Positions 12,104 to 53,730 of a stretch of 55,716 nt of DNA are shown here, piece after piece. The first letter of the stretch is position 1, and each line of letters begins with the position of its first letter. The notes beneath the pieces are model-generated. The model ran no database searches, had not been told where the DNA came from, and saw only the letters and a list, made by a program, of their open reading frames with translations. A program made the position numbers and the translations under genes. Source of the stretch: Acidimicrobiales bacterium. Lineage in GTDB: Bacteria; Actinomycetota; Acidimicrobiia; Acidimicrobiales; Aldehydirespiratoraceae. The stretch is taken from positions 1-55,716 of the forward strand of contig JAJCXW010000013.1 in NCBI GenBank assembly GCA_029263235.1, in the 5' to 3' direction.

Positions 12104-12172
12104 CGGTATTGAGGGTAATGCGGCCACTCCGGACGCGGGGTGAATCACGAGAATGCTCTGGCCGGGACACGA

Positions 12173-25952: not shown

Positions 25953-27491
25953 TCAGGCCGGTGAGCCTTCGTGGATCCCGGCCATCATCAATCCCAGCGT
26001 CTCGCGGGTTGCATCCTCGATCTCGACGATGCCGATGATGCGGCCCTCGAACATGACCGCGATCCGGTCGGCGATCGCCAGCAATTCGTCGAGGTCCTCC
26101 GAGACGACCAGTGCCGCCGCGCCGGCGCCTCGCTGTTCGATGATCTGCGCGTGTATGTATTCGGCCGCTCCGATGTCGACGCCGCGGGTCGGTTGTGCCG
26201 CCAGCAGCACCGTGGGACCCGACGCCAACTCACGGGCGAGGATCAGCTTCTGAATGTTTCCACCCGAAAGGGAGGAGGTGGTGGTGTCGAGCCCCGGGGT
26301 CTTGACATTGAACCGGTCGACCAATTCCTGGCTGTGACTACGAATCATGCCGAATCGAAGTAGTCCTCTTCGTGAGAACTCCTCTGAACCATGATCGACG
26401 AGCACGAGGTTTTCGCTGACCGTGAAATCACCGATGGCACCGTCGCGCATTCGCTCCTCTGGGACATAGGCGAGTCCGGCATCGCGCGATAGACGGGCAC
26501 CCTGTCCCACCACTTCGACGCCGTTGACTTGAACCGATGAGCCGGCTCTCGCATCTCGTAGGCCCGCGATGACTTCGGCAAGCTCGCGTTGGCCGTTGCC
26601 CGACACTCCGGCGATTCCGACTATCTCCCCGGCTCTCACGTCGAGGTCGAGTCCGTCGACCGCAGTGGTGCCACGATCACTCTCGACGACGAGGTTCCGG
26701 ATCACCAGCCGGGAGTCTCCAGGCTCGATCTCAGGACGATCAGGAGCCAGCGAGACCTCGCGCCCGACCATCATCGTGGCCAACTGTTGACGATCGGATT
26801 CGGCCGGCGTGGTGTGTCCGGTGACCCGACCGTTGCGGAGAACCGTTATCTCGTCGGAGATGGCAACGACCTCCCTCAACTTGTGGGAGATGAAGATCAA
26901 TCCATGCCCGGAGCTCCTCATTTCGTTGAGAATGCCGAAGAACTCCTCGACCTCCTGAGGTGTGAGGACCGCAGTCGGCTCATCGAGAACGAGCAGTCGG
27001 GCGTCGCGGTAGAGGGCCTTGATGATCTCGACTCGTTGGCGCTCGCCCACGGCCAGCTTCCACACTTCGATCGAAGGATCGATGGCCAGACCGAACTTCT
27101 CGGAGATCTCCTCCACCCGGCGGCTCACAACCGGAAGGTCGGTGAGGGGCCACCGCGTCGAGCGGGTTCCCAACGCCACGTTCTCGGCCACCGTGAGGGT
27201 GGGAACCAGCATGAAATGCTGGTGGATCATTCCGATGCCGTGAGAGATGGCGAAGGAAGGAGACTCGACCTCGATGGCTTCGCCGTTGAGACGAATCTCG
27301 CCTTCATCGGGCTGATACAACCCGAAGAGGATCTTCATCAGGGTGCTCTTGCCAGCACCGTTCTCGCCCAGAAGGGTGTGAACCTCTCCCGAGCGAACAG
27401 TCAAATCAACCGCGTCGTTGGCCAGAACGCCCGGGAATCGTTTGGTGATTCCCCGCATTTCGAGCATCGGTATGTCGGTATCTGTGGCCAT
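25953..27491 (-). CDS. Nucleoside/sugar (CUT2) ABC transporter ATP-binding protein with two ABC domains
   Basis: [43 protein letters not shown]. Confidence 0.92.
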
Positions 27492-27523
27492 TTCTACTCA
27501 GGTCCTGTGTTGATCAGTCGGCC

Positions 27524-27557
27524 TGGTGGGCGGCCGCAGGGAAGCGACCGCCCACCA
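27524..27557 (-). terminator. GC-rich stem-loop between the BMP and ATPase genes (partial terminator or mRNA stabiliser)
   Basis: On the - strand: TGGTGGGCGGTCGC-ttccct-GCGGCCGCCCACCA, a 14-bp stem with one G-U pair. Confidence 0.6.
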
Positions 27558-27568
27558 ACCCGGTCGGA

Positions 27569-28618
27569 TCAGCCGTTGGGGTCGATCGACCCGTCGATGA
27601 TTCCGGCGATGGCGGCATCACCCGCAGCCCTCGCGTCGGCAGAAAGATCGAACCCGTCGTTGAACTCGATCTCGAGGCCGCCGTTGGCGAGGTTGATCTC
27701 GAAGGCTTCGCCCCCGAGAACTCCTGCCTCACGCTGGTCGATCATCTCTTCGAGTATGACCTCCCAGTGGTAGACCTGTGACGCAACCACGAGACTCGGG
27801 TCGAGCGAGGTCTGGTTGGCCTGGGTGCCGAACCACGGCACACCCTCATCGGACGCAACACCAACCGCACCGACGACCATCTGCGCCGACCCGGTGAGCA
27901 CATCAGCACCGTTGATGATCAGTGCAGTGGCGGCTTCGGCGGCCAGTGCCACGTCGCCGAACGAACCCGTGTAGGTGATGCTCACGTCGGTGGCTCCGTT
28001 GGCCAGAGCGCCGTTGTTGAATCCCGTGATGTAGGTCACGGCATCGCCGGCCTCGATGGGACCAACCACACCGATGGAGCCACTGGCCGAAATCGCCGCG
28101 GCCACGACACCGTTGACGTAGCCACCTTCAGCGGCGTCCGGCGAATACGCGAACACGTTGGCTAGGCCCTGCGTGTCGGTGGACGTACCCCAGAGGAAGG
28201 TGACCTCGGGGAAATCGGGGGCGATCTCGGCCAGCGAGGCACCGAACTGCGTGCCGTGGGCGACGACGATCTCATTGCCGGCCTCCGCATACCCACGGAT
28301 GGCAGCTGCGGCATCTTCGATCACGAACGTTCCATCGGTGATCGATAGATCAACCGGATCGCTCAGCGCGTTGATGGCATCCACCATGCTCTGGGTGAAC
28401 GCCAGATCGTCGGACGCGCTGGGCGCGACCAACGCGATCTTGAGAGGGGTCTCAGCTGCCGCTGTGGTGGCAGGTGCAGTGGTGGCAGGTGCAGTGGTGC
28501 CCGTTGCCTCACCATCATCGGAATCGTCGCCGCAGGCTGAAGCGAGAAGCCCCAGCGCCATCACTGCAGCCACGAACCGAAGCAACTTGAACCTTCTACT
28601 TCTGTTCTTGTTTCTCAA
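27569..28618 (-). CDS. BMP family (PnrA-like) nucleoside-binding lipoprotein
   Basis: Lipobox LASAC, TTAPA repeats, DDLAFTQS, AHGTQF, YTGSFGD. AGGAGG upstream of the TTG start. Confidence 0.9.
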   Translation of the reverse strand: MRNKNRSRRFKLLRFVAAVMALGLLASACGDDSDDGEATGTTAPATTAPATTAAAETPLKIALVAPSASDDLAFTQSMVDAINALSDPVDLSITDGTFVIEDAAAAIRGYAEAGNEIVVAHGTQFGASLAEIAPDFPEVTFLWGTSTDTQGLANVFAYSPDAAEGGYVNGVVAAAISASGSIGVVGPIEAGDAVTYITGFNNGALANGATDVSITYTGSFGDVALAAEAATALIINGADVLTGSAQMVVGAVGVASDEGVPWFGTQANQTSLDPSLVVASQVYHWEVILEEMIDQREAGVLGGEAFEINLANGGLEIEFNDGFDLSADARAAGDAAIAGIIDGSIDPNG

Positions 28619-28654
28619 CTTACTCGCCTCCTGTATTGGGTTTTCTTGGTGCGA

Positions 28655-29584
28655 CTAGTGCCGCGAGAACGGTTGCGTGAGCGCGGCCGGCGGTTTGACC
28701 CGACGTGCCAATATCACGAGAGCGCCGATGGTTATCACAGCCGGAGCCATCGCCGATATGTCCGAAAGGCTTCTGGGGATGATCCCTAGAGCCTTCCAGG
28801 TGATCACGGTGGCTTCCACCAACCCGTAGAGCAGGGCTCCAGCCATCACTCCGGGGGCTCTCCATGCCCCGAAGTAGACCAGCGCTATCGCAATGAAGCC
28901 CCTACCTGCAGTGAGGTTCGGCTGGAAGATACCCAATTCGAGAACGAGCGCCGTACCGGCCACCCCAGCCAAGGTGTTTCCGATGACAATGGCCGAGAAA
29001 CGCATCCGAGCGACCGACACCCCGAGGCTGTCGGCGGATTCCGGATTCTCACCCACCGCCCGGATGTTGGTCCCGAACGTGGTGCGGCGCAGCAGGATCA
29101 TCACCAGTGGAACCATTACGAAGGCCGTGTAGGTCATCGCCGAGTGCTGGAAGAAAGCCACGCCCACATGGGGGATGTCGGACAACAGCGGGATGTCGAC
29201 CGATGGGAGCTTGCTCGTGAACTTCGGGGTCCCCACGTTCTCCTGGAACATCAGGTCGCTGAAGCCGAGACCGAACAGGAAGATCCCGATGCCGCTGATG
29301 CCCTGCTCAGCGTGGAAGACGACAGTGATCAGCCCATAGACGACCCCCATCAGCAACCCGACCAACATGCCGACCAGCACGGCCAGCCAGAGGCTCCCGG
29401 TGGACAAGGCCGTCCAGTAGGCGAAGAACGCGCTCAGGAGCATCACTCCCTCGACCCCGAGATTCAGGACCCCGCTCTTTTGGCCGATCATCTCCCCCAG
29501 GCCCGCGAAGAGGAACGGCGTCGACAATCGGATCCCAGCGGCGAGAGTCGAGAACAGGACCGTGGCGGTGAAGAAGTCGCTCAT
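28655..29584 (-). CDS. Nucleoside ABC transporter permease
   Basis: GEMIGQKSGVLNLGVEG, RAVGENP, GRGFIAIA. Confidence 0.9.
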   Translation of the reverse strand: MSDFFTATVLFSTLAAGIRLSTPFLFAGLGEMIGQKSGVLNLGVEGVMLLSAFFAYWTALSTGSLWLAVLVGMLVGLLMGVVYGLITVVFHAEQGISGIGIFLFGLGFSDLMFQENVGTPKFTSKLPSVDIPLLSDIPHVGVAFFQHSAMTYTAFVMVPLVMILLRRTTFGTNIRAVGENPESADSLGVSVARMRFSAIVIGNTLAGVAGTALVLELGIFQPNLTAGRGFIAIALVYFGAWRAPGVMAGALLYGLVEATVITWKALGIIPRSLSDISAMAPAVITIGALVILARRVKPPAALTQPFSRH

Positions 29585-30711
29585 GTGGCCGCGACCTCCT
29601 CGGCCGGCGGGCTGCTCGTCGACTCGTTGGCGGGATGGTCGAATTCGCGGCGGGCCTTGAGGATGGCACCGATTCGATCGCGGACCTTGCTGCTGCTGAC
29701 CACGAAGATCACCACGATGCCGTTGAGCGTCACTGCCAACGCTGCTGGAACCTGCAGTACCCGCTGGAGATGATTGGCACCGGTGATCAGACCACCGAAC
29801 AGGTAGGCCGAAGGAATGGTCCAGAGTGGATGGAGCCCACCGAACAGCGCGGCGACGATTCCGTTGAATCCGGCCGACCCGGTGAATCCAGCCGACGATC
29901 CGTCGGTGATCATTCGCTGTCCTTCACTTCCGAACACGAGAATCGCTCCGGCCAGTCCGGCCAGTGACCCGCTCAACGCCAGCGCCGAGACCACGCTTCG
30001 CTCGACCGGGATACCGGCCGCTCGTGCGGCATCCGGGCTGTGCCCCACCGCACGCAGACGGAACCCGAGCGGAGTTCGCCAGAGAAGGAAATAGGCGCCC
30101 ACCGCGGCAGCAACGGCCACAGGCACACCGAGATTGAAACGGGTGCCGCTGATCAAGGTGGGCAGCGCGGCGTTGTCGGACAGGCGCTCGGTCTGGGGGA
30201 TTCGCGTGCCGCGTTCGATCTCGAGCGGATCGATCAGAGGGCTCCGCAGCATGTAGTTCATGAATTGCACGGCCACGATGTTGAGCATGATCGTGCTGAG
30301 AATCTCGTTGACCGACGCGTAGGCCTTCAACACGCCCGGGACCGCTCCCCAGATCCCGCCACCGACCAGGCCGGCAAAGAGCACCAGTGGAATGAGAATG
30401 ATCGGGGGTAGTCCCGGGAGAGCCAGGGCAGTGACAGTTGAGAGCAAGGCCCCGGCGATGATCTGGCCCTCCCCGCCGATGTTGATGACACTCGCTCTGA
30501 ACGAGATGGATATCCCCGCTCCGACCAGCACCAGAGGTACCGCCCTGACGGCGGTGGCCGACAACCGATCAACGCTGCCGAACGCACCGGTGTACATGGC
30601 CCGGAAACCCTCGAACGGGTTGGCTCCGAGGGCAAGGAGAATGATCGCCGCACAGGCGAACGCAGCAAGCGCAGCCAACATGGGGATCACTGCGCTGACC
30701 AGACGATGCAA
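29581..30711 (-). CDS. Nucleoside ABC transporter permease
   Basis: NIGGEGQ, NEILSTIMLN, GFRLRAVG, GFNGIVAA. Confidence 0.9.
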   Translation of the reverse strand: MHRLVSAVIPMLAALAAFACAAIILLALGANPFEGFRAMYTGAFGSVDRLSATAVRAVPLVLVGAGISISFRASVINIGGEGQIIAGALLSTVTALALPGLPPIILIPLVLFAGLVGGGIWGAVPGVLKAYASVNEILSTIMLNIVAVQFMNYMLRSPLIDPLEIERGTRIPQTERLSDNAALPTLISGTRFNLGVPVAVAAAVGAYFLLWRTPLGFRLRAVGHSPDAARAAGIPVERSVVSALALSGSLAGLAGAILVFGSEGQRMITDGSSAGFTGSAGFNGIVAALFGGLHPLWTIPSAYLFGGLITGANHLQRVLQVPAALAVTLNGIVVIFVVSSSKVRDRIGAILKARREFDHPANESTSSPPAEEVAAT

Positions 30712-30857: not shown

Positions 30858-31316
30858 TCAGTCCTCGCCGATGTCCTCGTTCCAGAGTTCGGGCTGTGCC
30901 GCGATGAATTCGCTCATCAGTCCGACACACGTCGGGTCGTCGACCACCACGACCTCAACCCCACGCTCGGTCAACAAGTCCTCGCCCCCGACAAAGGTGG
31001 TGTTCTCCCCGATCACGACCCGGGGAATGCCGTAGAGAAGGGCAGCACCGGTGCACATGTCGCACGGCGACAGCGTGGTGTAGAGAGTTGAACGGCGGTA
31101 GTCCGAGGCAGAAAGTCGTCCGGCATTCTCCAGACAGTCCATCTCGGCATGAAGCACCACGCTCCCCTGTTGGACTCGCCTGTTGTGGCCACGGCCCACG
31201 ATCTCGCCGTCGATGACCAACGCCGAACCAATGGGAACGCCGCCCTCTCTGAGCCCAGTGTTGGCCTCCATCACCGCGGCTTCGAGACCCATCCGATCAT
31301 CGATGTTTTCCACCAT
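30858..31316 (-). CDS. Cytosine deaminase, yeast FCY1-like (CDA fold)
   Basis: GRGHN, HAE, LYTTLSPCDMC and C-terminal WNEDIGE. Start 31316 has TACGAT 6 nt upstream. Confidence 0.85.
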   Translation of the reverse strand: MVENIDDRMGLEAAVMEANTGLREGGVPIGSALVIDGEIVGRGHNRRVQQGSVVLHAEMDCLENAGRLSASDYRRSTLYTTLSPCDMCTGAALLYGIPRVVIGENTTFVGGEDLLTERGVEVVVVDDPTCVGLMSEFIAAQPELWNEDIGED

Positions 31317-31416
31317 GGACCGATCGTAGGCCACTCGGCAATCTTGACCGAGCCGCCGTTCCGACTATGTTCGTTCACGTTCCGGCCGCCGGGGGCGGCC
31401 CCAACGAGGGGGATAC

Positions 31417-42431: not shown

Positions 42432-43700
42432 ATGGAGATGGTCGACCTGATCAAGACCAAGCGCGACGGTCACCGCCTTGCCGATGATCAGATCAACTGG
42501 TTCATCCAACGATTCGCCACCGGCGAGATCCCCGACGAACAGGCCGCCGCCCTCGCCATGACCATCTATTTCCGGGGCATGGAGCCCGAAGAGCTCAACG
42601 TCTGGACCCAGGCGATGATCGACTCGGGCGACACCCTCGATCTATCCGGAGTTGGCCGGCCCACCGTCGACAAGCACTCCACGGGGGGCGTGGGCGACAA
42701 AGTCTCTCTCATCCTCGTTCCTCTGGTGGCAGCATGCGGAGCAGCGGTGCCACAGTTGTCCGGGCGGGGCCTCGGCCACACCGGAGGAACCCTCGACAAG
42801 CTCGAGGCAATCTCGGGTTGGAGAGCCGAGATGACGGCGGGCACCATGGTCTCGCAGCTACGCGAGGTCGGCGGAATCATCGCCGGAGCCAGCGCCGACA
42901 TCGCCCCGGCTGATCGTCGGATGTATGCGCTCCGCGATGTCACCTCAACCGTCGACTCCATCCCGCTGATCGCCAGTTCGATCATGTCGAAGAAGATCGC
43001 CGAGGGCACAGATGCTCTGGTGCTCGACGTGAAGTACGGAGCCGGAGCATTCCTGAGAGAGATCGACAAGGCACGTGAGGCCGCCGAAACGATGGTTCGC
43101 ATCGGCAACGACCATGGCGTTCGCACCGCGGCCCTGATCACCAACATGGACACGGTGTTGGGTCGATCGGCTGGCAACGCCGTGGAGGTGCAGGAGTCGA
43201 TCGACGTGCTGGAGGGCGGCGGACCGGCCGACCTGCTGGAGGTGACGTTGGCGCTCGCCGACGAGATGCTCCAACTTGCCGGACTCGACGCCGATCCCGC
43301 CGAGGTCCTCGCGTCGGGCCGAGCCCGTGAGGTGTTCGACCAGATGATCGCTGCTCAAGGCGGCGACCTCTCAGTCGAGTTGCCCCAGGCCGCCCACCGT
43401 ACGACCGTTGATGCGACGGAGTCGGGCTACATCACCCGACTCGACGCTCTTTCGGTCGGGATCGCGGCGTGGCGACTCGGCGCCGGGCGGGCACGAAAGG
43501 AGGATCCGGTCAGCGCGGTGGCCGGCGTGATCTGCCTGCGCAAGCCGGGAGAGCGGGTGAGTGCAGGCGAGCCGCTGCTGGAGCTACGCACCGACGATCC
43601 CGAGCGATTCACCGATGCTCGGGCCGCCCTCGGCGAGGCGATCGACATCGGCCCCGAGCCGCGCTCCAGCTCACCTCTGGTGGCCGATATCATCCGCTGA
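42432..43700 (+). CDS. deoA: Thymidine / pyrimidine-nucleoside phosphorylase
   Basis: DKHSTGGVGDK, SGRGLGHTGGTLDKLE, YALRDVT, SIMSKK. Confidence 0.95.
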   Translation: MEMVDLIKTKRDGHRLADDQINWFIQRFATGEIPDEQAAALAMTIYFRGMEPEELNVWTQAMIDSGDTLDLSGVGRPTVDKHSTGGVGDKVSLILVPLVAACGAAVPQLSGRGLGHTGGTLDKLEAISGWRAEMTAGTMVSQLREVGGIIAGASADIAPADRRMYALRDVTSTVDSIPLIASSIMSKKIAEGTDALVLDVKYGAGAFLREIDKAREAAETMVRIGNDHGVRTAALITNMDTVLGRSAGNAVEVQESIDVLEGGGPADLLEVTLALADEMLQLAGLDADPAEVLASGRAREVFDQMIAAQGGDLSVELPQAAHRTTVDATESGYITRLDALSVGIAAWRLGAGRARKEDPVSAVAGVICLRKPGERVSAGEPLLELRTDDPERFTDARAALGEAIDIGPEPRSSSPLVADIIR

Positions 43701-44377: not shown

Positions 44378-45361
44378 GTGACCGAACACGAGATCGACCC
44401 ATTCACCTCTGAACGAATCCTCGACGCCGCCTCCCGGGGCGAAGCGGTCGAAGGCTCCGACGGGCTGAGCGCTCTGCTCAGCTCGCTGCACGACCCCGCG
44501 TCGACAGCCGAGGCATCCACCACCCTGCCCGCCGCCGCTGTTGTCGCACCTCGACACCACTCGATCGGCCGCGTCACACGGCGCACGGCCGTGGCGGCTT
44601 CAGTCGCCCTGTTCGCCCTCACCGGAGCAGCTGCTGCGGTCACCGGCGGCACCGCACTCCTCGACCCGATACTCGGGTCCGATGCTCCAGAGGTCACCGA
44701 CGAGCCGGTGGAGATAGATCCGAGCGATGGCCTGTCCGATGAGGAACTCGCTCTCTTGTGCGAGACCGCAACGAGTCACGGCGAGTACGTCTCTGCGGTA
44801 GCCCGCGACACGATCACCGAGGGCTCTCACAGCAAACGAGTCGCCGCCGCCGCCCAATCCGACTGCGGCAAGACCACCGACGACCCCGATGCCGATCCCA
44901 TTCCAGATGTCGACGTAGACGTCGTTGTCGATGTCGAAGCCGGCGATGAGGTCCCCGACCCCGACGAGCCGATCGTGGTCGACGCGACCGACGGGCTGTC
45001 CGATGAAGAACTCGAGGTCCTGTGTGAGGAGGCCCGCAACCACGGCGAGTACGTCTCCGCCGTCGCTCGCGACAAGATCACCGAGGGCGCCCACAGCCGC
45101 CGAGTCACCGCCGCCGCCCAATCCGACTGCGGCAAGACCACCGACGACCCCGATACTGATCCCGATGTCGACGTGGACGTCGATGTCGTCGTACCTGCTG
45201 ACACCGTCGCCCCCGAAGTCACCGTTGAGGTCACCGTGGAGGTCACCGTCAATAGCGACGGGACCACCGAGGACACCAACGATCTCGGTTCGGGCAACGG
45301 CAAGTCCAACGGCCAGGGCAATGGTCGAGGCAACGGTCAGGGCAACAACAGCACCGATTGA
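44378..45361 (+). CDS. Putative anti-sigma: single TM helix plus two Cys/His repeats
   Basis: Directly downstream of the ECF gene. Basic stretch then TM helix (RRTAVAASVALFALTGAAAA), duplicated 55-aa unit, VD/VT repeats, GN-rich tail. Confidence 0.65.
   Translation: MTEHEIDPFTSERILDAASRGEAVEGSDGLSALLSSLHDPASTAEASTTLPAAAVVAPRHHSIGRVTRRTAVAASVALFALTGAAAAVTGGTALLDPILGSDAPEVTDEPVEIDPSDGLSDEELALLCETATSHGEYVSAVARDTITEGSHSKRVAAAAQSDCGKTTDDPDADPIPDVDVDVVVDVEAGDEVPDPDEPIVVDATDGLSDEELEVLCEEARNHGEYVSAVARDKITEGAHSRRVTAAAQSDCGKTTDDPDTDPDVDVDVDVVVPADTVAPEVTVEVTVEVTVNSDGTTEDTNDLGSGNGKSNGQGNGRGNGQGNNSTD
44726..45154 (+). repeat. Intragenic direct repeat, 2 x 165 bp (44726-44890 and 44990-45154)
   Basis: DGLSDEELALLCETATSHGEYVSAVARDTITEGSHSKRVAAAAQSDCGKTTDDPD versus DGLSDEELEVLCEEARNHGEYVSAVARDKITEGAHSRRVTAAAQSDCGKTTDDPD. 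Confidence 0.92.
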
Positions 45362-45403
45362 GCAATCGGGGACGAAGATCCGTTCATCTCGGGTTTCGTT
45401 CTC

Positions 45404-45741
45404 ATGCGATCCAGAACCGTTGTAGCGGTAGTTGCCGGAACGCTGGCCACCACCGCCATTGCCCCCACCATCAAGCTCAAGCGCGACGAGGTCGAGGCCG
45501 CGGTGCCATCAGCCGAGCTGATGGCCCTGCTTCGGCAGCGCTTCACCGAACACGGCGGGTCGACAACCGTCGCCCACACCGGTGAGTTCCGACTACGGGC
45601 GGAATCTGGAGCGCCCTTTTGGCAGTGGGGCCAGTGAAGCACGCCTTCGAGACCCACGTTCACGAGCACATGATCGAGATGGCTCTGACGGTCAGCGACC
45701 AATCGGATGCCACACCGTCTTCATCTCACAGAAGTCAGTGA
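45404..45741 (+). pseudogene. Frameshifted small gene (or assembly indel)
   Basis: Adding one G at 45597-45599 joins ..HTGEFRLR to GGIWSALLAVGPVKHAFETHVHEHMIEM.., with the stop at 45739-45741. Confidence 0.45.
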
Positions 45742-46540
45742 TCGACTGAGGACTCTCGTCGCCGACGCTGCCACGCACGACCCTCTTGACGTTGGTGGCG
45801 GCCTCATCAAGAACCGCAGGATCGAGATCGTCGGAGGCTCCGGTGAGATCGACAGCGTTGACATCGCTGTGACCGAGCATCCATGGCAGTAGTTCGTTCC
45901 TGGTGCCGGTGAGCATGTTGACCACCCCACCCGGGACATCCGATGTGGCGATCACCTCCGACAGGCTGATAGCCGGTAGCGGCGAGGTCTCGCTCGGGAT
46001 CACCACCGCGGTGTTGCCGCCCACCAAGACCGGGGCAAGGCGAGACACCAAGCCGAGAAGCGCAGGCTGATCAGGGGCGACGACCCCGACCACTCCGGTG
46101 GGTTCGGGCACGGTGAAATTGAAGAACGGTCCGGCCACCGGGTTGACGGTGCCCACGATGTGCTGGAACTTGTCGCACCAGCCCGCGTACCAGACCCACA
46201 GGTCGATGGCCTGCTCAACCTCGCGTCGAGCCGCCCGCTGCTCCACTCCACAAGTGCGCAGCTCGGCCGCGAACTGCGACCGGCGGCCCTCCATCACTTC
46301 GGCCACCCGGTAGAGAATCTGGCCTCGGTTGTAGGCGGTGCGACCAGCCCAGCCGCTCTGAGCCGACCGGGCGGCACGAACTGCATCACGCAGGTCCTTG
46401 CGAGAGGCCTTGGCCACGTTGGCAACGAACTCTCCCTCGACCGAGGACACCACTGTGGTGCGTCCCGATTCCGAACGGGGGAAGGCCCCGCCGATGAACA
46501 GCTTGTAGGTCTTTTGAACATCGAGTCGTTCGGCCATCAC
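45692..46540 (-). CDS. Truncated aldehyde dehydrogenase-like protein (NAD-binding domain only)
   Basis: KLFIGG.FPRSESGR, PEPTGVVG, GGVVN.LTG, C-terminal EMKTVWHPIG. No ELGGK motif and no catalytic Cys domain. Confidence 0.85.
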   Translation of the reverse strand: MMAERLDVQKTYKLFIGGAFPRSESGRTTVVSSVEGEFVANVAKASRKDLRDAVRAARSAQSGWAGRTAYNRGQILYRVAEVMEGRRSQFAAELRTCGVEQRAARREVEQAIDLWVWYAGWCDKFQHIVGTVNPVAGPFFNFTVPEPTGVVGVVAPDQPALLGLVSRLAPVLVGGNTAVVIPSETSPLPAISLSEVIATSDVPGGVVNMLTGTRNELLPWMLGHSDVNAVDLTGASDDLDPAVLDEAATNVKRVVRGSVGDESPQSITDFCEMKTVWHPIGR

Positions 46541-48036
46541 GAGCGTCCCTTCATCGGTGAGAGTGAAAGGTAGGGAGCGAGGCCGTGCAGGCCGCCCTCT
46601 CGGCCGAAGCCGCTCTCTTTGTAGCCACCGAAGGGGCTGGTCGGGTCGAACTGATTGAACGTGTTGGCCCAGATCACACCGGCATCGAGCCGGTCGGCCA
46701 TCCAGAGGATCTTCGAACCCTTCTCGGTCCAGATCCCCGCCGACAATCCGTAGGGGGTGTTGTTGGCCTTGGCGACCGCTTCCTCGGGAGTACGGAAGGT
46801 GAGAACCGAAAGCACCGGCCCGAACACTTCCTCTCGGGCGACTCGATGGGTCTGTTCGACGTTGCTGAGGATGGTCGGACGATAGAAGAAGCCACGATCA
46901 GGGAGAGAACAGTCGGGCTGGAAGAGCTCGGCACCCTCCCTCACTCCAACCTCCACGAGCTCAGAGATCTTGGCCAGCTGCTGCGACGAGTTGATGGCTC
47001 CGACATCGGTGTTCTTGTCGAGGGGATCCCCGACTCTCACCGTGGAGAGCCTTCGCTTCAGTCGATCGACGAACGAATCGGCGATGGATTCCTGTACCAG
47101 CAAGCGGGAACCGGCACAGCAGACATGCCCCTGATTGAAGTAGATGCCGTTGATGACTCCCTCGACGGCCTGGTCGATGGCGGCGTCCTCGAACACGATG
47201 TGGGCAGCCTTGCCTCCCAGCTCAAGGGTGACGGGCACGTTGCGGGCCAGCGCGGTGCGCTGGATCTGCTTTCCGACCGCTGTCGACCCGGTGAAGGCCA
47301 ACTTGTCGACATCACGATGCTCGACGAGAGCGGCGCCGGTTTCGCCGGCACCAGTGACGATGTTGACCACACCGGGCGGCAGACCGACGTCCTGCATCAG
47401 CTCACCCAGCAACAGCGCGGTGAGCGGTGTGGTCTCGGCCGGCTTCAGCACCACGGTGTTGCCGGCAGCCAACGCCGGGGCCAGCTTCCATGAGGCCATC
47501 ATCATCGGGAAGTTCCACGGGATGATCTGGCCAACCACACCCCTCGAGTCGTGGCGACGACCCGGATAGGCGTAGTCGAGCTTGTCGGCCCACCCGGCGT
47601 AGTAGAAGAAATGCGCCGCGGCGAGAGGGATGTCGATGTCGCGGCTTTCCTTGATCGGCTTGCCGCCGTCGAGGGTCTCCAGGACTGCGAACTCCCGGGC
47701 TCGTTCCTGGAGTTGGCGGGCGATCCGGAACATGTACTTGGCTCGTTCCTTCCCGGGCATCGAACCCCAGACATCGGTGTGGGCACGGCGGGCCGCCGAC
47801 ACGGCACGGTCGACATCGGCCGCCGAAGCCGAAGCCACGTTGGCGAGGTGTTGCTCGGTCGAGGGCGAGATCGTCGGGAAGTAGCCACCGTCGATCGGTT
47901 CCACGAACTCGCCGCCGATGAACAGCCCGTAGTCGTCGTCGATCGAAACGATCGATGTGGATTCGGGCGCCGGGGCGTAGTCGAGGCCGAAGCCGTGGGA
48001 CGGTTCGACAGGTTCGGGGTGTTTGTTGTCGGTCAC
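46537..48036 (-). CDS. Aldehyde dehydrogenase (probably acting on acetaldehyde)
   Basis: IIPWNFP, KPAE, FTGS, LELGGK, FNQGHVCCAG, EEVFGP, PFGGYKESG. Start set at GTG 48036. Confidence 0.92.
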   Translation of the reverse strand: MTDNKHPEPVEPSHGFGLDYAPAPESTSIVSIDDDYGLFIGGEFVEPIDGGYFPTISPSTEQHLANVASASAADVDRAVSAARRAHTDVWGSMPGKERAKYMFRIARQLQERAREFAVLETLDGGKPIKESRDIDIPLAAAHFFYYAGWADKLDYAYPGRRHDSRGVVGQIIPWNFPMMMASWKLAPALAAGNTVVLKPAETTPLTALLLGELMQDVGLPPGVVNIVTGAGETGAALVEHRDVDKLAFTGSTAVGKQIQRTALARNVPVTLELGGKAAHIVFEDAAIDQAVEGVINGIYFNQGHVCCAGSRLLVQESIADSFVDRLKRRLSTVRVGDPLDKNTDVGAINSSQQLAKISELVEVGVREGAELFQPDCSLPDRGFFYRPTILSNVEQTHRVAREEVFGPVLSVLTFRTPEEAVAKANNTPYGLSAGIWTEKGSKILWMADRLDAGVIWANTFNQFDPTSPFGGYKESGFGREGGLHGLAPYLSLSPMKGRS

Positions 48037-48038
48037 GA

Positions 48039-50693
48039 TCAGTCGACGCTCACGTAGTCGGGGCCGGAGTATCGGCCGGTTTCGAGTTTCTGGATCTGGA
48101 GAAGCGCATCGTTGAGCAGGCTCGACGCACCGATTCGGAACCGGGAGGCGTCGAGCCAGTCGGGCCCGAGAGTTTCGCCGACCATCACGAGGTAGTGCCA
48201 AGCCTGTTTGGCGGTGCGAATACCACCGGCGACCTTCAAACCAACCGGCTCACCGGTCTGGTCGACGTAGTCGCGAATCGCCTCTGCCATGCACAAGGCG
48301 ATCGGCAGAGTCGAGTTCTTGGAGACCTTGCCGGTGGAGGTCTTGATGAAGTCGGCACCGGCCGCCATCGCCAGCATCGATGCCCGACGAATCTGGTCGT
48401 AGGTGCCGAGTTCGCCGGTTTCGAGAATCACCTTGAGATGGGCCTGACCGCACGCGTCCTTGGCCGCCGCTATCTCGTCGAACACTCGTCCGTACTGGCC
48501 GGAGAGGAAGTCGCCGCGCCCGATGACGATGTCGATCTCGCCGGCACCAGCCGCCACTGCCTCACGAATGTCGGAGAGTCGCACCTCGAGTGACGACAAG
48601 CCGCTCGGGAAGGCGCCGGCCACGCTTGCGACCGCCACCGATGAGCCCGCGGTGTTGGCCACGGCATGGGGAACCATCTTCGGATACACGCACACCGCTG
48701 CCGTGGAGGGAACCGAAGGGTCGGACGGGTCGGGGGTGATGGCCTTCTGACACAGAGCACGGACCCGGCCCGGGGTGTCCATCCCCTCCAGTGTGGTCAG
48801 GTCGATACAGGAGATGGCGAGATCGAGCGCGGCTCGCTTCGAAGTCTTCTTGATCGAACGAGTCGTGAAGGCCTTGGCCCGAGCCTCGATGGCCACCTCG
48901 TCGACGGGTGTGACCTTCAAGCCCAGCCCGTTTCCGGAACCAGCGCTGAACCCGCTCGGGGACGAAGTCGTGTGGTCTAGTTGCCTGCTCACAGTGTCCA
49001 GTGTGCCCGTGGAATCGGGGGGACGCCCACCAATCAATTCGGCGGCGGCATCGAGAGCGCTGTGAAGTGTTTCGACCGCTGACTCTCGGGCGACAGCGAG
49101 GTCGTCGAATCCGGCCTCCACGATGGTCTCGCCGTAGAGCTTCAACTTGGGTTCGGTGCCGCTGGGCCGGAGCACCAGACGTGTGTGCGACGACAGGTCG
49201 AGGATCAGGGCATCGGTGGCGGGAAGCCCTGTTCCGGCGGCGAGCAGATCGGTCACGCAGTCGACCTCGAGGTCGCCGACCGAGACCGGCGGACGGGAAC
49301 GCATCCTCTTCATCAGGTCGCTCATTCGTTCTGAGGCATCGGAACCCTCGAATCGGAACGACCTCTGATCGCTGTGATGGACACCGTGGCGACGATGGAG
49401 ACCATCGAGCAGGTCGAGAACAGTGGTGCCGGAGGCCTTGGCCTCTGCCGCCATTTCCGCGAATGCCAGAGCCGCGCTGACGCCGTCCTTGTCTCGCACC
49501 GCATCTCCGACGGCAAACCCGAGTGCCTCCTCGAAGCCGAACGCGAACTCGAGTTCGGTGCGTTCGATCGCCGGCCGCATGATCCACTTGAAGCCGGTGA
49601 GGGTCTCCTCGAATACCACACCGTGGTCGGCGGCGATACGAGACAGCAATCGTGACGACACGACCGTGGTGGCAACCAGGCGATCGTCGCCGTCGCCCCG
49701 GGACAGGGTGTGTTCAGCGAGAAGCCCGCCGATCTCGTTTCCGGTGAGGGGCCGCCACCCGTCGCCGTTGGGCACCACCACGGCCAGGCGGTCGGCGTCG
49801 GGGTCGTTGGCGATGACGAGTTCGGCTCCCGTATCGGCGGCCAGGTCGATCGCCAGGTCGAGAACTCCGGGTTCCTCCGGATTCGGGAAGGCCGCGGTGG
49901 GGAAATCCGGATCAGGGTCTCCCTGTTCGGGCACGACATCCGGCGCCGGAAAGCCCGCTGCGGTGAAGGAGCGAAGGAAGACTTCGCGACCCACGCCGTG
50001 AACAGGCGTGTAGACCACGGCCAGATCACGCGCGGTGTCCGACGAGATCACACCGACGGCAGCCTCCACATAGGCGGCGATCAAAGAGTCGTCGGTGTCG
50101 GAGATTCGTGGGTCGTCGGCCGCGGCCAGGTCGGCGTCGGAGACCAGTCCCACCGCATCTATCTCTGTGGCTATCTCGGAATCAACGGGCGACGCTATCT
50201 GGGCACCGTCGCCCCAATAGACCTTGAAGCCGTTGTCGGCCCTCGGGTTGTGACTGGCCGTGACCATCACGCCGGCATCGGCACCGAGGCGACGAACCGC
50301 GAAAGCCAGAACCGGTGTCGGGTGGGGGCCACGAACGATCTCGACATCGAGCCCGTGGGCCGCCGCCACTCGCGCTGTGTCGTCGGCGAAGACGTCGCTG
50401 TTGTGCCGGGCATCGTGGGCGACGACGATCTTCGTGCCACCCTCGGCGATCACCCGTCGCGACACCCCAGCGGCGGTCATTCTCACCAACACCCGGTTCA
50501 TACGGGTCGGTCCGGCGCCGAGAGCACCTCGTAGCCCGGCGGTCCCGAACGCCAGCCGAGCGGCGAAACGCTCCTCCAAATCCGTGCCTCCAGCGGCGAT
50601 CAACTCCTCGAGTTCGGCGCGGGTGTCGGGATCGGGGTCGGCCGCCAACCAGGCGCGTGCCTCGCTCAGGGCTCCCCCATCGACGGCGCTCAT
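48039..50693 (-). CDS. deoC: Fused phosphohexomutase/phosphopentomutase and deoxyribose-phosphate aldolase (DeoC)
   Basis: N-terminal ~560 aa: FGTAGLRG, TASHNP, DPDADR, FEEALG, RPSGTEPK. C-terminal ~300 aa: IDLTTL, AVCVYP, EIDIVI, LKVILETGEL, FIKTSTGK, KVAGGIR, RIGASSL. Confidence 0.88.
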   Translation of the reverse strand: MSAVDGGALSEARAWLAADPDPDTRAELEELIAAGGTDLEERFAARLAFGTAGLRGALGAGPTRMNRVLVRMTAAGVSRRVIAEGGTKIVVAHDARHNSDVFADDTARVAAAHGLDVEIVRGPHPTPVLAFAVRRLGADAGVMVTASHNPRADNGFKVYWGDGAQIASPVDSEIATEIDAVGLVSDADLAAADDPRISDTDDSLIAAYVEAAVGVISSDTARDLAVVYTPVHGVGREVFLRSFTAAGFPAPDVVPEQGDPDPDFPTAAFPNPEEPGVLDLAIDLAADTGAELVIANDPDADRLAVVVPNGDGWRPLTGNEIGGLLAEHTLSRGDGDDRLVATTVVSSRLLSRIAADHGVVFEETLTGFKWIMRPAIERTELEFAFGFEEALGFAVGDAVRDKDGVSAALAFAEMAAEAKASGTTVLDLLDGLHRRHGVHHSDQRSFRFEGSDASERMSDLMKRMRSRPPVSVGDLEVDCVTDLLAAGTGLPATDALILDLSSHTRLVLRPSGTEPKLKLYGETIVEAGFDDLAVARESAVETLHSALDAAAELIGGRPPDSTGTLDTVSRQLDHTTSSPSGFSAGSGNGLGLKVTPVDEVAIEARAKAFTTRSIKKTSKRAALDLAISCIDLTTLEGMDTPGRVRALCQKAITPDPSDPSVPSTAAVCVYPKMVPHAVANTAGSSVAVASVAGAFPSGLSSLEVRLSDIREAVAAGAGEIDIVIGRGDFLSGQYGRVFDEIAAAKDACGQAHLKVILETGELGTYDQIRRASMLAMAAGADFIKTSTGKVSKNSTLPIALCMAEAIRDYVDQTGEPVGLKVAGGIRTAKQAWHYLVMVGETLGPDWLDASRFRIGASSLLNDALLQIQKLETGRYSGPDYVSVD

Positions 50694-51538
50694 AGCCGCT
50701 CCAGTACGCCGCGCAACAACGCGACCATTCTCGGCCCGGCGTCACGAGCGGCGTCGAGCACATCGGTGTGGTCGAGCAACTCGTCGGACAGTCCGGCCGC
50801 CGCGTTGGTCACGAGCGACACGCCGAGAAGCTCGGCGCCCAAGTGGCGAGCCGCAATCGCCTCCAGCACAGTCGACATGCCGACGAGATCGGCGCCCATG
50901 GTCTGGAGCATTCGGATCTCTGCCGGAGTCTCGTAGGCCCCCCCGAGCAGGCCGGCGTAGATCCCTTCGGGAAGGGTCGGATCGACGTCCAAGGCGAGGG
51001 CGCGAAGGCGAGCCGAGTACGCCTCCGTGAGGTCGACGAAGCGTGCTGGCTTGTCGTCCGGAGGCGGTGGCCCGACCATCGAGGTCGTGCCGGTGAGATT
51101 GAGTTGGTCGCACAGCAGCACCGGCTGGCCGACCGGCCATGTCGGGTCGAGACCACCGGCGGCGTTGGTGAGAACGATGGTTCGACAACCCGCGGCAATC
51201 GCAGTGCGCACACCGTGGACCACGGTGTGGACCGCGTGTCCTTCATAGAGGTGAGCTCGACCACCGAGCACCAACACGGCAAGATCGCCCACCTTGACCG
51301 ACCGAGCCAGGTTTCGGTGCCCGACCACCGTTGGGGCCGGAAAGCCGGGCAGGTCACCGAGTTCTACGTCGGCAACCACCGCACCGAGTTCGTCTGCTGC
51401 TGCGGCCCATCCCGATCCGAGCACGACCGCGGCATCGTGGCTCTCGACGCCCGTGCGACGAGCCAACTCGGCCGCGGCGTCGGCAGCCAGTTCGTAGGGG
51501 TCGGTCCCGATATTGGTTTCCACGTTCGATCCTTCCAA
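50690..51538 (-). CDS. punA: Purine-nucleoside phosphorylase (trimeric type)
   Basis: VLGSGW, GRAHLYEG, LTNAAGG, YETPAE, GADLVGMST, SLVTN. ATAG-type overlap with the mutase-DeoC start at 50690-50693. Confidence 0.93.
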   Translation of the reverse strand: MEGSNVETNIGTDPYELAADAAAELARRTGVESHDAAVVLGSGWAAAADELGAVVADVELGDLPGFPAPTVVGHRNLARSVKVGDLAVLVLGGRAHLYEGHAVHTVVHGVRTAIAAGCRTIVLTNAAGGLDPTWPVGQPVLLCDQLNLTGTTSMVGPPPPDDKPARFVDLTEAYSARLRALALDVDPTLPEGIYAGLLGGAYETPAEIRMLQTMGADLVGMSTVLEAIAARHLGAELLGVSLVTNAAAGLSDELLDHTDVLDAARDAGPRMVALLRGVLERL

Positions 51539-51586
51539 GAATGAATTCTGCTCACAACCGCTGTCGTAGGAAAGGGAGCCTCTCGG

Positions 51587-52753
51587 CTACACCCCGAGCC
51601 CGGTCAGCGCATCTTCGAGTCGGCGACCGCACTGATCGCCGAATCCAGCCCAAGTGTTGCTGGAATCGTCCATCTTCGAGTCGGCTTCCTCCCACATTTC
51701 GGCCTCCAGGGGATCGAGAGCCTCACGCACATCGACCAGCGTCTCGAGGATGACCTCGACCATGTCGCGCAGGGCCGCGAAACTCTCGACCAGTCGCAGA
51801 TCCGACAACACCGTCGGGACGCTCGATGCCACGAACGGAACATAGACACCACAGCAGGGAGATCCGACGCACGCCCAGAACCTCACGGGCCCGCCGTCGG
51901 ACGGCAAGAAGCACACCATCGACGCGGTAGTCGCCTGGTATCCCGGGATGTGCATGCAGACGGTGATGCCCGACAGGTCGTCGCCTAGCTCCGATGGAGG
52001 CAACTCAGGCCGGTCGCCTCGCCCCGGAGCCCCCCACGGAACCGTTCCATGGAATCTCAGTGTGGCGACAGCGTCGGCCGGCGACGGATCCGACAACGAG
52101 CACGCTGATGTCGCGGCCAGCCGATGATCGGCAAGGCGGGTGTCGACCGAGGTCTGATGCCAAAGCTCGACGGACTCCCCTTCGGACAGCGCTCCCGAGG
52201 AACGGGTCCAGTCGGTTCCGAGCGTGTATCGGTTGGATATGGCGGCGTGATCAACGAACGGTGCCGCCACCCAGTCGCGGCCCGATGTCTCCACCACCCA
52301 GCCAGCGGTGGCGTCCACAAGCAGGAACGACGAGTCGTAGGCATCACCTTGGTCGGGCTCCCCGCTGCCGCCCTGCCCATGACGAGCCAGCATCTCGGAG
52401 AGGACGTCGACGCCTTCCTCGGCCGAGCGGGCCCGCTCCAACGTGAGCCGAACCAGGTCCATGCCGATGAGCGCGTCAGGCCCAGTGAGGTCGCGGTTGG
52501 AGTAAACCCTCTCGTTGCCGACTGCCAAGCCGTGTTCGTTCACACCATGCTCAGCCCCCCACAACCAGGTTGGTCGGGACAGCACGGTCGGACTGGCATC
52601 GGCATCGTCGATTTGGAGGTATTGCGTGTGCAGTCTCCCCTGGGGCCGCCGAGCCGAGTTGGCCTCGATGATCTGCGGTTCGAGAGGGCCGCGATCGGAG
52701 TTCTTGGCGAACAGCGAACCAGCCGACGAGATGGAAGCGAATGTGTCGCACAT
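51587..52753 (-). CDS. Peptidase C69 / secernin-like Ntn hydrolase
   Basis: N-terminal MCDT (Cys nucleophile), FAKNSDR, WLWGAEHGVNEHG, GMDLVRL.LER, VCMH. Confidence 0.85.
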   Translation of the reverse strand: MCDTFASISSAGSLFAKNSDRGPLEPQIIEANSARRPQGRLHTQYLQIDDADASPTVLSRPTWLWGAEHGVNEHGLAVGNERVYSNRDLTGPDALIGMDLVRLTLERARSAEEGVDVLSEMLARHGQGGSGEPDQGDAYDSSFLLVDATAGWVVETSGRDWVAAPFVDHAAISNRYTLGTDWTRSSGALSEGESVELWHQTSVDTRLADHRLAATSACSLSDPSPADAVATLRFHGTVPWGAPGRGDRPELPPSELGDDLSGITVCMHIPGYQATTASMVCFLPSDGGPVRFWACVGSPCCGVYVPFVASSVPTVLSDLRLVESFAALRDMVEVILETLVDVREALDPLEAEMWEEADSKMDDSSNTWAGFGDQCGRRLEDALTGLGV

Positions 52754-52823
52754 GGCCACGACCTTAGGAGACGAATCATCCCAGACATGTAGCCACCCGA
52801 CGAGCGGGTGTAGACCAGTGGGC

Positions 52824-53714
52824 GTGAACGGCCGCATCAGCGACAGCGAACTGACAAAGGTCGAGGAGGCGATATCCGCGGCGCTCGCTTCCGACGACCA
52901 TTCCGGACTCACGATTCTGGGCTACGGAGAGGTGTCCGTGGCGGTGGGTTGGCCCAGTGGATCACCGACCTGGGCCTGCAAACGCATGCCTCCCTTCGCC
53001 GACCAAGAGACCTTCGACGCCTACCTGACCCTCGTCACCGACTACATCGCCACTCTCACCGCTGCCGGGGTGAACGTTCTCGACACCGAGGTCCGTCAGC
53101 TTCCGGGCCCCCACGGAAGCCGCATCGGCTACCTCGTGCAACCTGCCCTCGACCCGTCGCAGCTCGGCCCCAATGTGCTGCGGTCCGCCGATCCCACGAT
53201 CGGCCACCCGATCATCGAAGCGATCGTCGATTCGGTGCTGGCCTGCACCGATGGGCGTACCGGTATCGACGCTCAGATCACCAACTGGGCTTGGATCGAC
53301 GGCCGGGCCGTCAACCTCGACGTCAACACCCCGTTCACGTTCGACGAGGCCGGGCACCCGGTTCTCGACATCGACATGTTCATCGGGGCGCTGCCCTGGG
53401 CAGTGAGGGCGACCCAACGCAAGGCCGGACCGAAGATCATCGCTCGATGGGCCAAACCACGCTGGACGCTCACCGACATGGCCATGAATCTCCACAAGGA
53501 CCGTCTCGAAGAATGGATACCTCTCGTTGTGGAGGCCGCCAACAGCAGACTCGATGATCCGATCATCGAGTCCGACCTCAAGGCCGCTTACGCCAAGGAA
53601 GCGAAACTCTGGGTGAAGCTGCACCGACTGAAGCGGGTCGACCGTTGGTGGCAGCGAACGATCCGCCGACGTCGCTACCAGTTCCTCGTTCCCGAGACGA
53701 CCGACTACGCATGA
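52824..53714 (+). CDS. DUF6206 family protein (kinase-like fold suspected)
   Basis: LGYGEVS..ACKRMP, YLVQP, GIDAQITNW, LDVNTP. Start approximate (52818 or 52824). Confidence 0.65.
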   Translation: MNGRISDSELTKVEEAISAALASDDHSGLTILGYGEVSVAVGWPSGSPTWACKRMPPFADQETFDAYLTLVTDYIATLTAAGVNVLDTEVRQLPGPHGSRIGYLVQPALDPSQLGPNVLRSADPTIGHPIIEAIVDSVLACTDGRTGIDAQITNWAWIDGRAVNLDVNTPFTFDEAGHPVLDIDMFIGALPWAVRATQRKAGPKIIARWAKPRWTLTDMAMNLHKDRLEEWIPLVVEAANSRLDDPIIESDLKAAYAKEAKLWVKLHRLKRVDRWWQRTIRRRRYQFLVPETTDYA

Positions 53715-53730
53715 CCACAGGAGACATTCG

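Follow-up and report, generated by a model that had tools for sequence, protein, structure and literature searches.

A PGM2-like mutase and the aldolase DeoC in one reading frame of an Acidimicrobiales genome, probably joined by a single inserted base

The stretch of DNA analysed here (the window, 55,716 nucleotides in all; contig JAJCXW010000013.1) comes from an Acidimicrobiales bacterium and contains an open reading frame (ORF; 48039..50693, minus strand) in which a sugar-phosphate mutase is followed by the aldolase DeoC. We consider it likely that this ORF is a genuine single gene of an Acidimicrobiia metagenome-assembled genome (MAG), that it encodes a two-enzyme protein of (deoxy)nucleoside catabolism and that its two halves were fused by a one-base insertion. 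As the preliminary description of this DNA, made from the sequence alone, had stated, the frame is a single one of 884 amino acids (aa); the protein (P0001) starts with ATG, and its stop codon is at 48039-48041. Residues 1-556 (49026..50693) make up an alpha-D-phosphohexomutase of four domains, extended by helices at its N-terminus, and residues 557-589 (48927..49025) form a linker. They are followed by the structured N-terminal extension of a long-type DeoC (residues 590-620, 48834..48926), as seen in an AlphaFold2 (AF2) model, and by the TIM-barrel core and C-terminal tail of DeoC (residues 621-884, 48042..48833), all on the minus strand.

Nucleoside phosphorylases release ribose-1-phosphate or deoxyribose-1-phosphate, a mutase converts the product to the 5-phosphate, and DeoC cleaves deoxyribose-5-phosphate to glyceraldehyde-3-phosphate and acetaldehyde. 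In the window, PunA and a pyrimidine-nucleoside phosphorylase would release the (deoxy)ribose-1-phosphate, the N-terminal PGM2-type domain would shift the phosphate from C1 to C5 (the phosphopentomutase step), the C-terminal class I aldolase, which is plainly a DeoC domain, would split deoxyribose-5-phosphate into glyceraldehyde-3-phosphate and acetaldehyde, and a downstream aldehyde dehydrogenase (ALDH) would oxidise the acetaldehyde. The preliminary description had taken the two halves for consecutive steps after nucleoside phosphorolysis, and this view is supported by the evidence given below.

As for the origin of the gene, we propose that the DNA gained one base directly in front of the GTG start of deoC, at an overlapping or nearby mutase stop. 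Such an insertion would have removed the in-frame stop and put two translationally coupled genes into one frame, and the old mutase tail and the old DeoC N-terminus would have become a flexible linker of 33 residues. The consequence would be a fixed 1:1 ratio and the proximity of two consecutive enzymes, and most likely nothing more. True substrate channelling is possible, and the predicted disorder of the linker would argue for tethering rather than for a fixed tunnel.

Both enzymes and the pathway are textbook knowledge, and many proteins in sequence databases have the mutase-DeoC architecture. The novelty lies in a second origin of the fusion, which is recent and mechanistically transparent, in the use of its recurrence as functional evidence and in a matched pair of fused and split genes in one genus. 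A search of full-text literature, with most subscription journals outside its reach, returned no paper on a mutase-DeoC fusion and none that assigns a function to the actinobacterial mutase clade.

The junction of the two halves

The window genome (G000) can be compared with a sister species of the same genus (G002) and with four congeners that have split genes (G003, G001, G005 and G006). G002 carries the same uninterrupted frame; the two proteins are about 94-95% identical, and the nucleotides differ at 9% across the gene. In the four other congeners there are two genes, with 73-78% identity to the window in the mutase part and 78-84% in DeoC, and the GTG of deoC overlaps the TGA of the mutase gene (GTGA in G003) or sits shortly after it. 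A DNA alignment of the junction places one extra base just before the GTG in G000 and G002 relative to G003, G006, G001 and G005. In the window this base is the A at 48995, the first base of the ACT codon of Thr567 (48993..48995). The next codon, GTG for Val568 (48990..48992), is the ancestral deoC start, now internal and in frame, and the fused gene has retained both this codon and the N-terminal region of deoC. Because the extra base occurs only in G000 and G002, the four congeners have the shorter state and genera g4 and g7 have split genes as well, the split state would be the ancestral one, and by parsimony the change would have been from split to fused.

The end of the mutase gene is evolutionarily labile in this genus. 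There are three different mutase C-termini among the split congeners (one in G003, one shared by G001 and G005 and one in G006), and the fused state is a fourth form of the junction. In G006, a 19-nucleotide insertion near the 3' end of the mutase gene is accompanied by an early stop, and deoC follows in the same frame after two in-frame TGA codons.

A one-base error in a homopolymer or in the consensus could merge two overlapping genes in an assembly, and some facts leave room for such an artefact: G000 is a draft of 266 contigs and 86% complete, a single base separates the fused from the split state, and four congeners are split. However, the extra A does not lie within a homopolymer, and the same base is present in G002 at the nucleotide divergence given above. 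We also looked at the junction in Logan contigs of public sequencing runs. A 434-nucleotide contig of run X1 crosses it with 0 differences, no gap and no indel listed, and a 4264-nucleotide contig of run X3, which has a depth of 17.5 and 57 differences over 693 nucleotides (about 92% identical), includes the extra base and also crosses without gap or indel. The contigs of run X2 miss the junction, and run X5, from a different study, covers 49025-49161 alone at less than 90% identity. No RNA run is listed as containing the stretch. The inspection across the junction that the preliminary description had proposed thus yields contigs of two runs that span it without an indel. It counts on the other side that X1 and X3 come from one study, that X1 may be the source sample itself and that Logan contigs drop rare variants.

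Selection on the gene bears on the same question. Between G000 and G002, the ratio of nonsynonymous to synonymous substitution rates (dN/dS) is 0.096 for the whole gene, 0.10 for the mutase and 0.08 for DeoC, and so about 0.1 on either side of the junction; the overall dS is 0.33, and there is no indel over 884 codons. A dN/dS this low without any indel implies that purifying selection has acted on the fused gene ever since the two lineages diverged. The fusion is probably genuine at the DNA level, and we regard an artefact of assembly or sequencing as highly improbable.

The silent sites near the junction display a pattern of their own. At third codon positions, G000 and G002 differ least round the junction, with 2 and 2 differences in two consecutive 33-codon intervals compared with a median of 7, and all intervals that low fall in codons 545-596 or in codons 836-848, the latter by the ALDH start. 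Divergence at silent sites is about 3.5-fold below that of the rest of the gene at about 48810-49060 (codons 545-628) and at about 48050-48190 (codons 836-880). Constraint on initiation, RNA structure, recombination or chance could each produce such a dip, and since only two genomes are compared, it could simply be chance or a recombination tract.

An internal start would give the fused gene two products. According to this explanation, the ancestral deoC GTG at Val568 is still used, free DeoC is made alongside the fused protein and the fusion is in part a neutral read-through of the operon junction. That the GTG is kept in frame and that third-position divergence is lowest round the junction would both fit, but the latter pattern comes from two genomes only and is perhaps due to chance or a recombination tract. 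In addition, the GTG of G000 has no clear Shine-Dalgarno motif in front of it, and the split state probably relied on coupling of termination and reinitiation, which would be gone in the fused gene. We find this explanation quite improbable and prefer a single fused product.

The two domains, their distribution and their origins

The preliminary description had called the mutase complete on the strength of its TASHNP and DPDADR motifs and had called the DeoC complete as well, and both statements are borne out. The mutase has the four-domain architecture of the alpha-D-phosphohexomutases by Pfam (domains I-III), AF2 and Foldseek. The Pfam matches to PGM_PMM_I (residues 47-180), II (207-310) and III (318-426) are all above their cut-offs; the match to domain IV is weak (residues 505-523, 20.3 bits with a cut-off of 23.1), and AF2 folds the corresponding region, residues 438-554, confidently. 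The TASH of the phosphoserine loop and the three Asp of the metal loop, which are expected of the superfamily, are both present, as is the phosphate loop RPSGTEPK at residues 509-516 with its Glu. In an alignment of the window protein with 15 other fused proteins (alignment A1), TASHNP (T145-P150), DPDADR (D297-R302; 49788..49805), E388 of the sugar loop and the phosphate loop (R509-K516) are invariant. Ser147, whose codon is at 50253..50255, would be the phosphoserine of the TASHNP loop, a role taken from the accessible part of PMC5570346.

The AF2 model, which was built on a 70-row alignment, has a mean predicted local distance difference test (pLDDT) score of 88.6 and a predicted template modelling (pTM) score of 0.70. 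Foldseek gives a probability of 1.00 to many solved mutases, the best solved relatives being at most 24% identical. The ESM Atlas matches are solely to clusters of stand-alone 'phospho-sugar mutase' proteins, with a score of 0.86 (lead threshold 0.9).

In the other half, Pfam DeoC matches residues 627-833, and the equivalog model TIGR00126 (deoC) matches residues 628-848 with 166 bits, above its cut-off of 117.3; this is the only TIGR00126 match in the genome. We take D102, K167 and K201 of the Escherichia coli deoxyribose-phosphate aldolase (DERA) to be its catalytic residues and K167 to be the Schiff-base lysine. The DeoC half aligns with this enzyme (6z9i, 1jcl) over 240 residues, and D721, K784 and K820 align with its chain positions 102, 167 and 201 in 6z9i and are invariant in alignment A1. 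K754 had also been considered as the Schiff-base lysine and was ruled out, because the DERA alignment gives K784. DeoC proteins of about 318 aa that are extended at the N-terminus and have a C-terminal tail make up a 'long' type, to which the window DeoC belongs; otherwise, members of this type are stand-alone proteins, in which the N-terminal extension is conserved. In the AF2 model, residues 590-628 contain two confident helices (599-609 and 616-628) ahead of the TIM barrel.

Residues 557-589 are the sole long low-confidence stretch in the model, with pLDDT below 50, and are predicted to be disordered. Here, the preliminary description had placed a Ser/Gly-rich linker of about 35 aa. The low-confidence stretch agrees with this, but the linker is no new insert. 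Since the mutase frame runs through the GTG into deoC, it consists of the old C-terminal tail of the mutase and the old N-terminus of the long-type DeoC, and it is homologous to the ends of the split genes.

The distribution of the fusion was followed in a set of 41 related genomes, including 24 others of the window's family and 16 from other families of the order. The search for proteins with both domains that the preliminary description had suggested finds the fusion in eight of the 24 family genomes, that is G002 and seven in genera g5, g6, g9 and g10; six further family genomes have the two genes adjacent and split. Outside the family, the 16 genomes sampled from the rest of the order all lack the fusion. 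When residues 450-884 are used as the query, 73 of the 120 matches listed carry both domains; one of these is the G002 protein, and the other 72 belong to an older fused clade. These 72, among the matches listed, are 767-942 aa long, with the exception of P0094, which is truncated to 542 aa, and their identity to the window protein is 49-57% in the mutase part and 47-59% in the DeoC part. In a class-wide tally of 201 genomes, no row other than that of G000 spans both halves, and with four candidates per genome and one other family genome sampled, this tally sets no bound on the frequency of the fusion.

Trees of the two domains separate the window fusion from the older ones. In FastTree trees, the window falls in a seven-row set of its own genus, four rows of which are split, with a support of 97 for DeoC and 100 for the mutase, and the trees of both domains group the older fusions in a separate clade of 77 rows. 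The approximately unbiased (AU) test, run in IQ-TREE on a reduced set, rejects a single fused clade for the mutase (p = 7.4e-12, log-likelihood difference 105.8) and does so marginally for DeoC (p = 0.0375, difference 38.3); it counts against the test that its groups were named with the first trees already known, and against the DeoC result that it is marginal. Both domains nest among the split genes of their own genus, apart from the older clade, and therefore the pair has been fused at least twice. Judged from these trees, common descent of the window fusion with the older Acidimicrobiia fusion clade is not supported.

The preliminary description had regarded the fusion as a mark of the mutase clade and had held that two separate genes in close relatives would speak against it. 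Four congeners, 73-84% identical, do have two separate genes, and the fusion, which has a counterpart in the older clade, is therefore recent, confined to G000 and G002 among the genomes searched and no property of a clade.

Other fusions that involve DeoC were also encountered. Seven proteins of 782-807 aa (P0032, P0035, P0071, P0078, P0090, P0100 and P0116) have an N-terminal long-type DeoC and a complete ALDH, the next two steps of the pathway, in one polypeptide; P0035 and P0071 were checked with Pfam, and 16 of the 120 matches listed carry both the DeoC and the ALDH Pfam families. In P0029, a metagenomic protein of 697 aa, a long-type DeoC is preceded by a canonical DeoB (TIGR01696, 418.7 bits). 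No second DeoB-DeoC protein occurs among the best 120 of 7960 matches, and the listed relatives of P0029 are of the Kiritimatiellia type. Either a rare fusion of an analogous kind or a chimera made in assembly could account for it; as a singleton on one contig, it was dropped as functional support by analogy.

The step probably catalysed by the mutase

According to the accessible part of PMC5570346, human PGM2 and PGM2L1 are marked by a DPDADR metal loop, a FAFEE sugar loop, which is followed by Ser only in PGM2L1, and a Glu in the phosphate loop. The DPDADR and the phosphate-loop Glu, described there for the PGM2/PGM2L1 subgroup (cd05799), are both present in the window protein. Its sugar loop, FGFEEA, has one substitution with respect to the published FAFEE, and Ala, not Ser, follows; in the older fused clade, the loop is GYEEA (alignment A1). 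With DPDADR, FGFEEA and RPSGTEPK, the mutase is PGM2-like by its motifs, with one substitution in the sugar loop. Phosphopentomutases with the phosphohexomutase fold are described from mammals and from Thermococcus, in the accessible parts of PMC5570346 and PMC11641776, respectively.

Canonical DeoB (TIGR01696) does not occur above its cut-off in any of the 41 related genomes, and the argument from this absence is carried by the 31 with a completeness of at least 90% and a contamination of at most 5%. P0001 itself has no match to the DeoB or Metalloenzyme (PF01676) models. G000 has three other PGM_PMM_I paralogs, which could fill the hexose and hexosamine mutase roles. A purine-nucleoside phosphorylase (PNP) gene lies within 3 kb of the mutase gene in 34 of the best 80 named loci, Streptomyces and Nocardiopsis included, and the window also has genes for a Bmp-type ABC transporter, a cytidine deaminase (cdd) and a pyrimidine-nucleoside phosphorylase. 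The four mutase loops and the equivalents of D102, K167 and K201 in DeoC are all intact, and the order mutase-then-DeoC is stably tolerated in the older fused clade. Two independent fusions to DeoC, the recurrent adjacency to punA and the lack of DeoB in 41 genomes argue that this actinobacterial clade is the missing phosphopentomutase. Given a real fusion, we think it quite likely, from these sequence-based arguments, that the mutase half is the phosphopentomutase of the pathway.

The gene could also be truly fused while its mutase acts on hexose phosphates, as a phosphoglucomutase or a phosphomannomutase, or makes a bisphosphate cofactor like PGM2L1. The Streptomyces gene sco4916 is presumably an ortholog of the window mutase. 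It is still called a possible phosphomannomutase in Streptomyces papers (PMC5982138, in its accessible part), and JGI gives the name 'phosphomannomutase' to some of the fused relatives. The substrate of bacterial PGM2-like enzymes is left open in the accessible part of PMC5570346, by which they may still be efficient phosphoglucomutases, and the PGM2 subfamily also includes a glucose-1,6-bisphosphate synthase, as stated in the accessible part of PMC9426568. The mutase half passes no equivalog model of NCBIfam, the best being archaeal GlmM with 171 bits and a cut-off of 439. A nucleoside phosphorylase gene stands beside the fused gene in two of eight examined loci of the older fused clade, and the absence of DeoB from G000 itself (no DeoB or Metalloenzyme match at E <= 0.001) is weak evidence because the genome is only 86% complete. 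All of these points weigh against a phosphopentomutase, and so does a regulator of the GntR/FCD type found directly upstream of the fused gene in three others of the eight loci (L006 4117-4749, L011 766-1455 and L035 2270-2968). ABC permease genes lie near the older-clade fused genes that have this regulator, which suggests that the operon of the older clade is regulated differently from that of the window.

A hexose phosphate substrate, however, would not easily be reconciled with two independent fusions of the mutase to DeoC, with the punA linkage in 34 of 80 loci, with DeoB not being found in 41 relatives or with three other mutase paralogs in the same genome. Moreover, the two Glu of the sugar loop are followed by Ala, which resembles PGM2 and not PGM2L1 with its Ser, as far as the accessible part of PMC5570346 describes them. 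We therefore consider a mutase for hexose phosphates or for a bisphosphate cofactor unlikely, and the phosphopentomutase remains the reading that we prefer.

The operon, its meaning and known systems

The fusion gene is part of a densely packed operon on the minus strand. As the preliminary description had noted, punA, encoding a purine-nucleoside phosphorylase (50690..51538, minus strand; NF006054, 291.5 bits with a cut-off of 218), is directly upstream, and its stop codon overlaps the ATG of the fusion gene by four nucleotides (ATGA). Directly downstream is a gene for a full-length ALDH (46537..48036, minus strand; Pfam Aldedh, 536 bits), whose probable GTG start at 48036, judged from the translation, would be two nucleotides past the fusion stop.

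The stop codon of the ALDH gene is overlapped (GTGA) by the GTG start of a gene for a half-size ALDH-like protein of 282 aa (45692..46540, minus strand), which matches positions 4-233 of the 461 positions in the Aldedh profile. The preliminary description had counted two ALDH genes after the fusion; the first is indeed a full-length ALDH, but the second is this half-size protein. From the matched range, it probably lacks the catalytic part of ALDH, and one might guess that it is a non-catalytic partner subunit. Nine other genomes encode the same short form, which matches over its full or nearly full length with 54-94% identity, and wherever the neighbours are visible, its gene is just downstream of the full ALDH gene on the contig that carries deoC. 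A frameshifted pseudogene or a truncated ALDH was ruled out by this conservation in nine genomes and by the adjoining ORFs, which have no Pfam match.

Elsewhere in the window are genes for a pyrimidine-nucleoside (thymidine) phosphorylase (42432..43700, plus strand; Pfam Glycos_transf_3, Glycos_trans_3N and PYNP_C), for a cytidine deaminase-type protein (cdd; 30858..31334, minus strand; Pfam dCMP_cyt_deam_1) and for an ATP-binding cassette (ABC) transporter with a Bmp/PnrA-like binding protein, two permeases and an ATPase (25953..30711, minus strand; Pfam ABC_tran, Bmp and BPD_transp_2 twice), which, from the name of the PnrA-like family, may take up nucleosides. The gene upstream of punA (51587-52912, minus strand) has weak, below-cut-off matches to Peptidase_C69 and to Ntn hydrolases of the C45 acyltransferase type. 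The gene at 7274-12148 (minus strand) encodes an ordinary NAD-specific glutamate dehydrogenase of 1624 aa with all of its ACT and helical-motif domains. A scan of 45000-53800 for promoters and terminators gave 0 promoter-like and two terminator-like sites, fewer than in shuffled sequences, and was uninformative. The named relatives found are Acidimicrobiia MAGs.

If the proposed origin is correct, a gene fusion is seen here almost in the act, with one base at an overlapping stop and start making the difference. The split and fused states in one genus are a natural matched pair for testing the effect of tethering on flux. Current pipelines label such proteins 'phosphomannomutase' or 'phospho-sugar mutase', and the fusion bears on the question, which the accessible part of PMC5570346 leaves undecided, of whether bacterial PGM2-like mutases are phosphopentomutases or phosphoglucomutases. 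There is also a modest practical value, as a single-chain mutase-DERA could serve nucleoside biocatalysis.

A more speculative possibility, which we find rather doubtful, is that the nucleoside-catabolic operon of this family is being welded stepwise into multi-enzyme polypeptides, that this has been selected against the diffusion of deoxyribose-5-phosphate and acetaldehyde and that the fused protein channels its intermediate. The two mutase-DeoC fusions and the DeoC-ALDH fusions in the long-DeoC clade would fit such a history. If it were true, the conserved, catalytically gutted half-size ALDH could be a scaffold subunit, and the conservation of silent sites at the junction would point to an internal start still in use, by which the proportion of free and tethered DeoC is tuned.

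The nearest known counterpart is the split punA/mutase/deoC/ALDH operon of G003, G001, G005 and G006, which is orthologous to that of the window, has the same gene order and also ends in the half-size ALDH-like gene; there, the mutase TGA is at or just before the deoC GTG, whereas the window lacks the stop and is longer by one base. The older fusion clade has the same two domains in the same order, the same catalytic motifs and a linker of variable length, and its genes are 49-53% identical to the window protein in alignment A1. It differs in its separate origin, the window domains grouping with split genes of their own genus, and in its DeoC, in which both terminal segments of the long type, the N-terminal extension and the C-terminal tail, are mostly missing.

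Human PGM2 and the window mutase are in a similar size class (about 560-610 aa) and have in common TASHNP, DPDADR, two Glu in the sugar loop without a following Ser and the phosphate-loop Glu; the sugar loop is FGFEE in the window and FAFEE in PGM2. This likeness is one of motif descriptions published in the accessible part of PMC5570346. In PGM2, no aldolase is fused to the mutase.

The phosphopentomutase (PPM) of Thermococcus kodakarensis is said, from the work of Rashid in 2004, to function together with a DeoC-type aldolase (DERA). Like the window mutase, this enzyme (9ix8) has the phosphohexomutase fold, and it is pentose-specific according to the accessible part of PMC11641776. It is distant from the window mutase, with a phmmer E-value of 2.6e-19 over residues 49-310 only and a Foldseek identity of 20%, and unlike the window mutase it has 449 aa, no N-terminal extension and a separate gene. 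Finally, the E. coli deo system follows the same pathway logic with DeoB and DeoC as separate proteins, and its DeoB, a member of the alkaline-phosphatase superfamily, is non-homologous to the mutase that has been joined to DeoC in the window.

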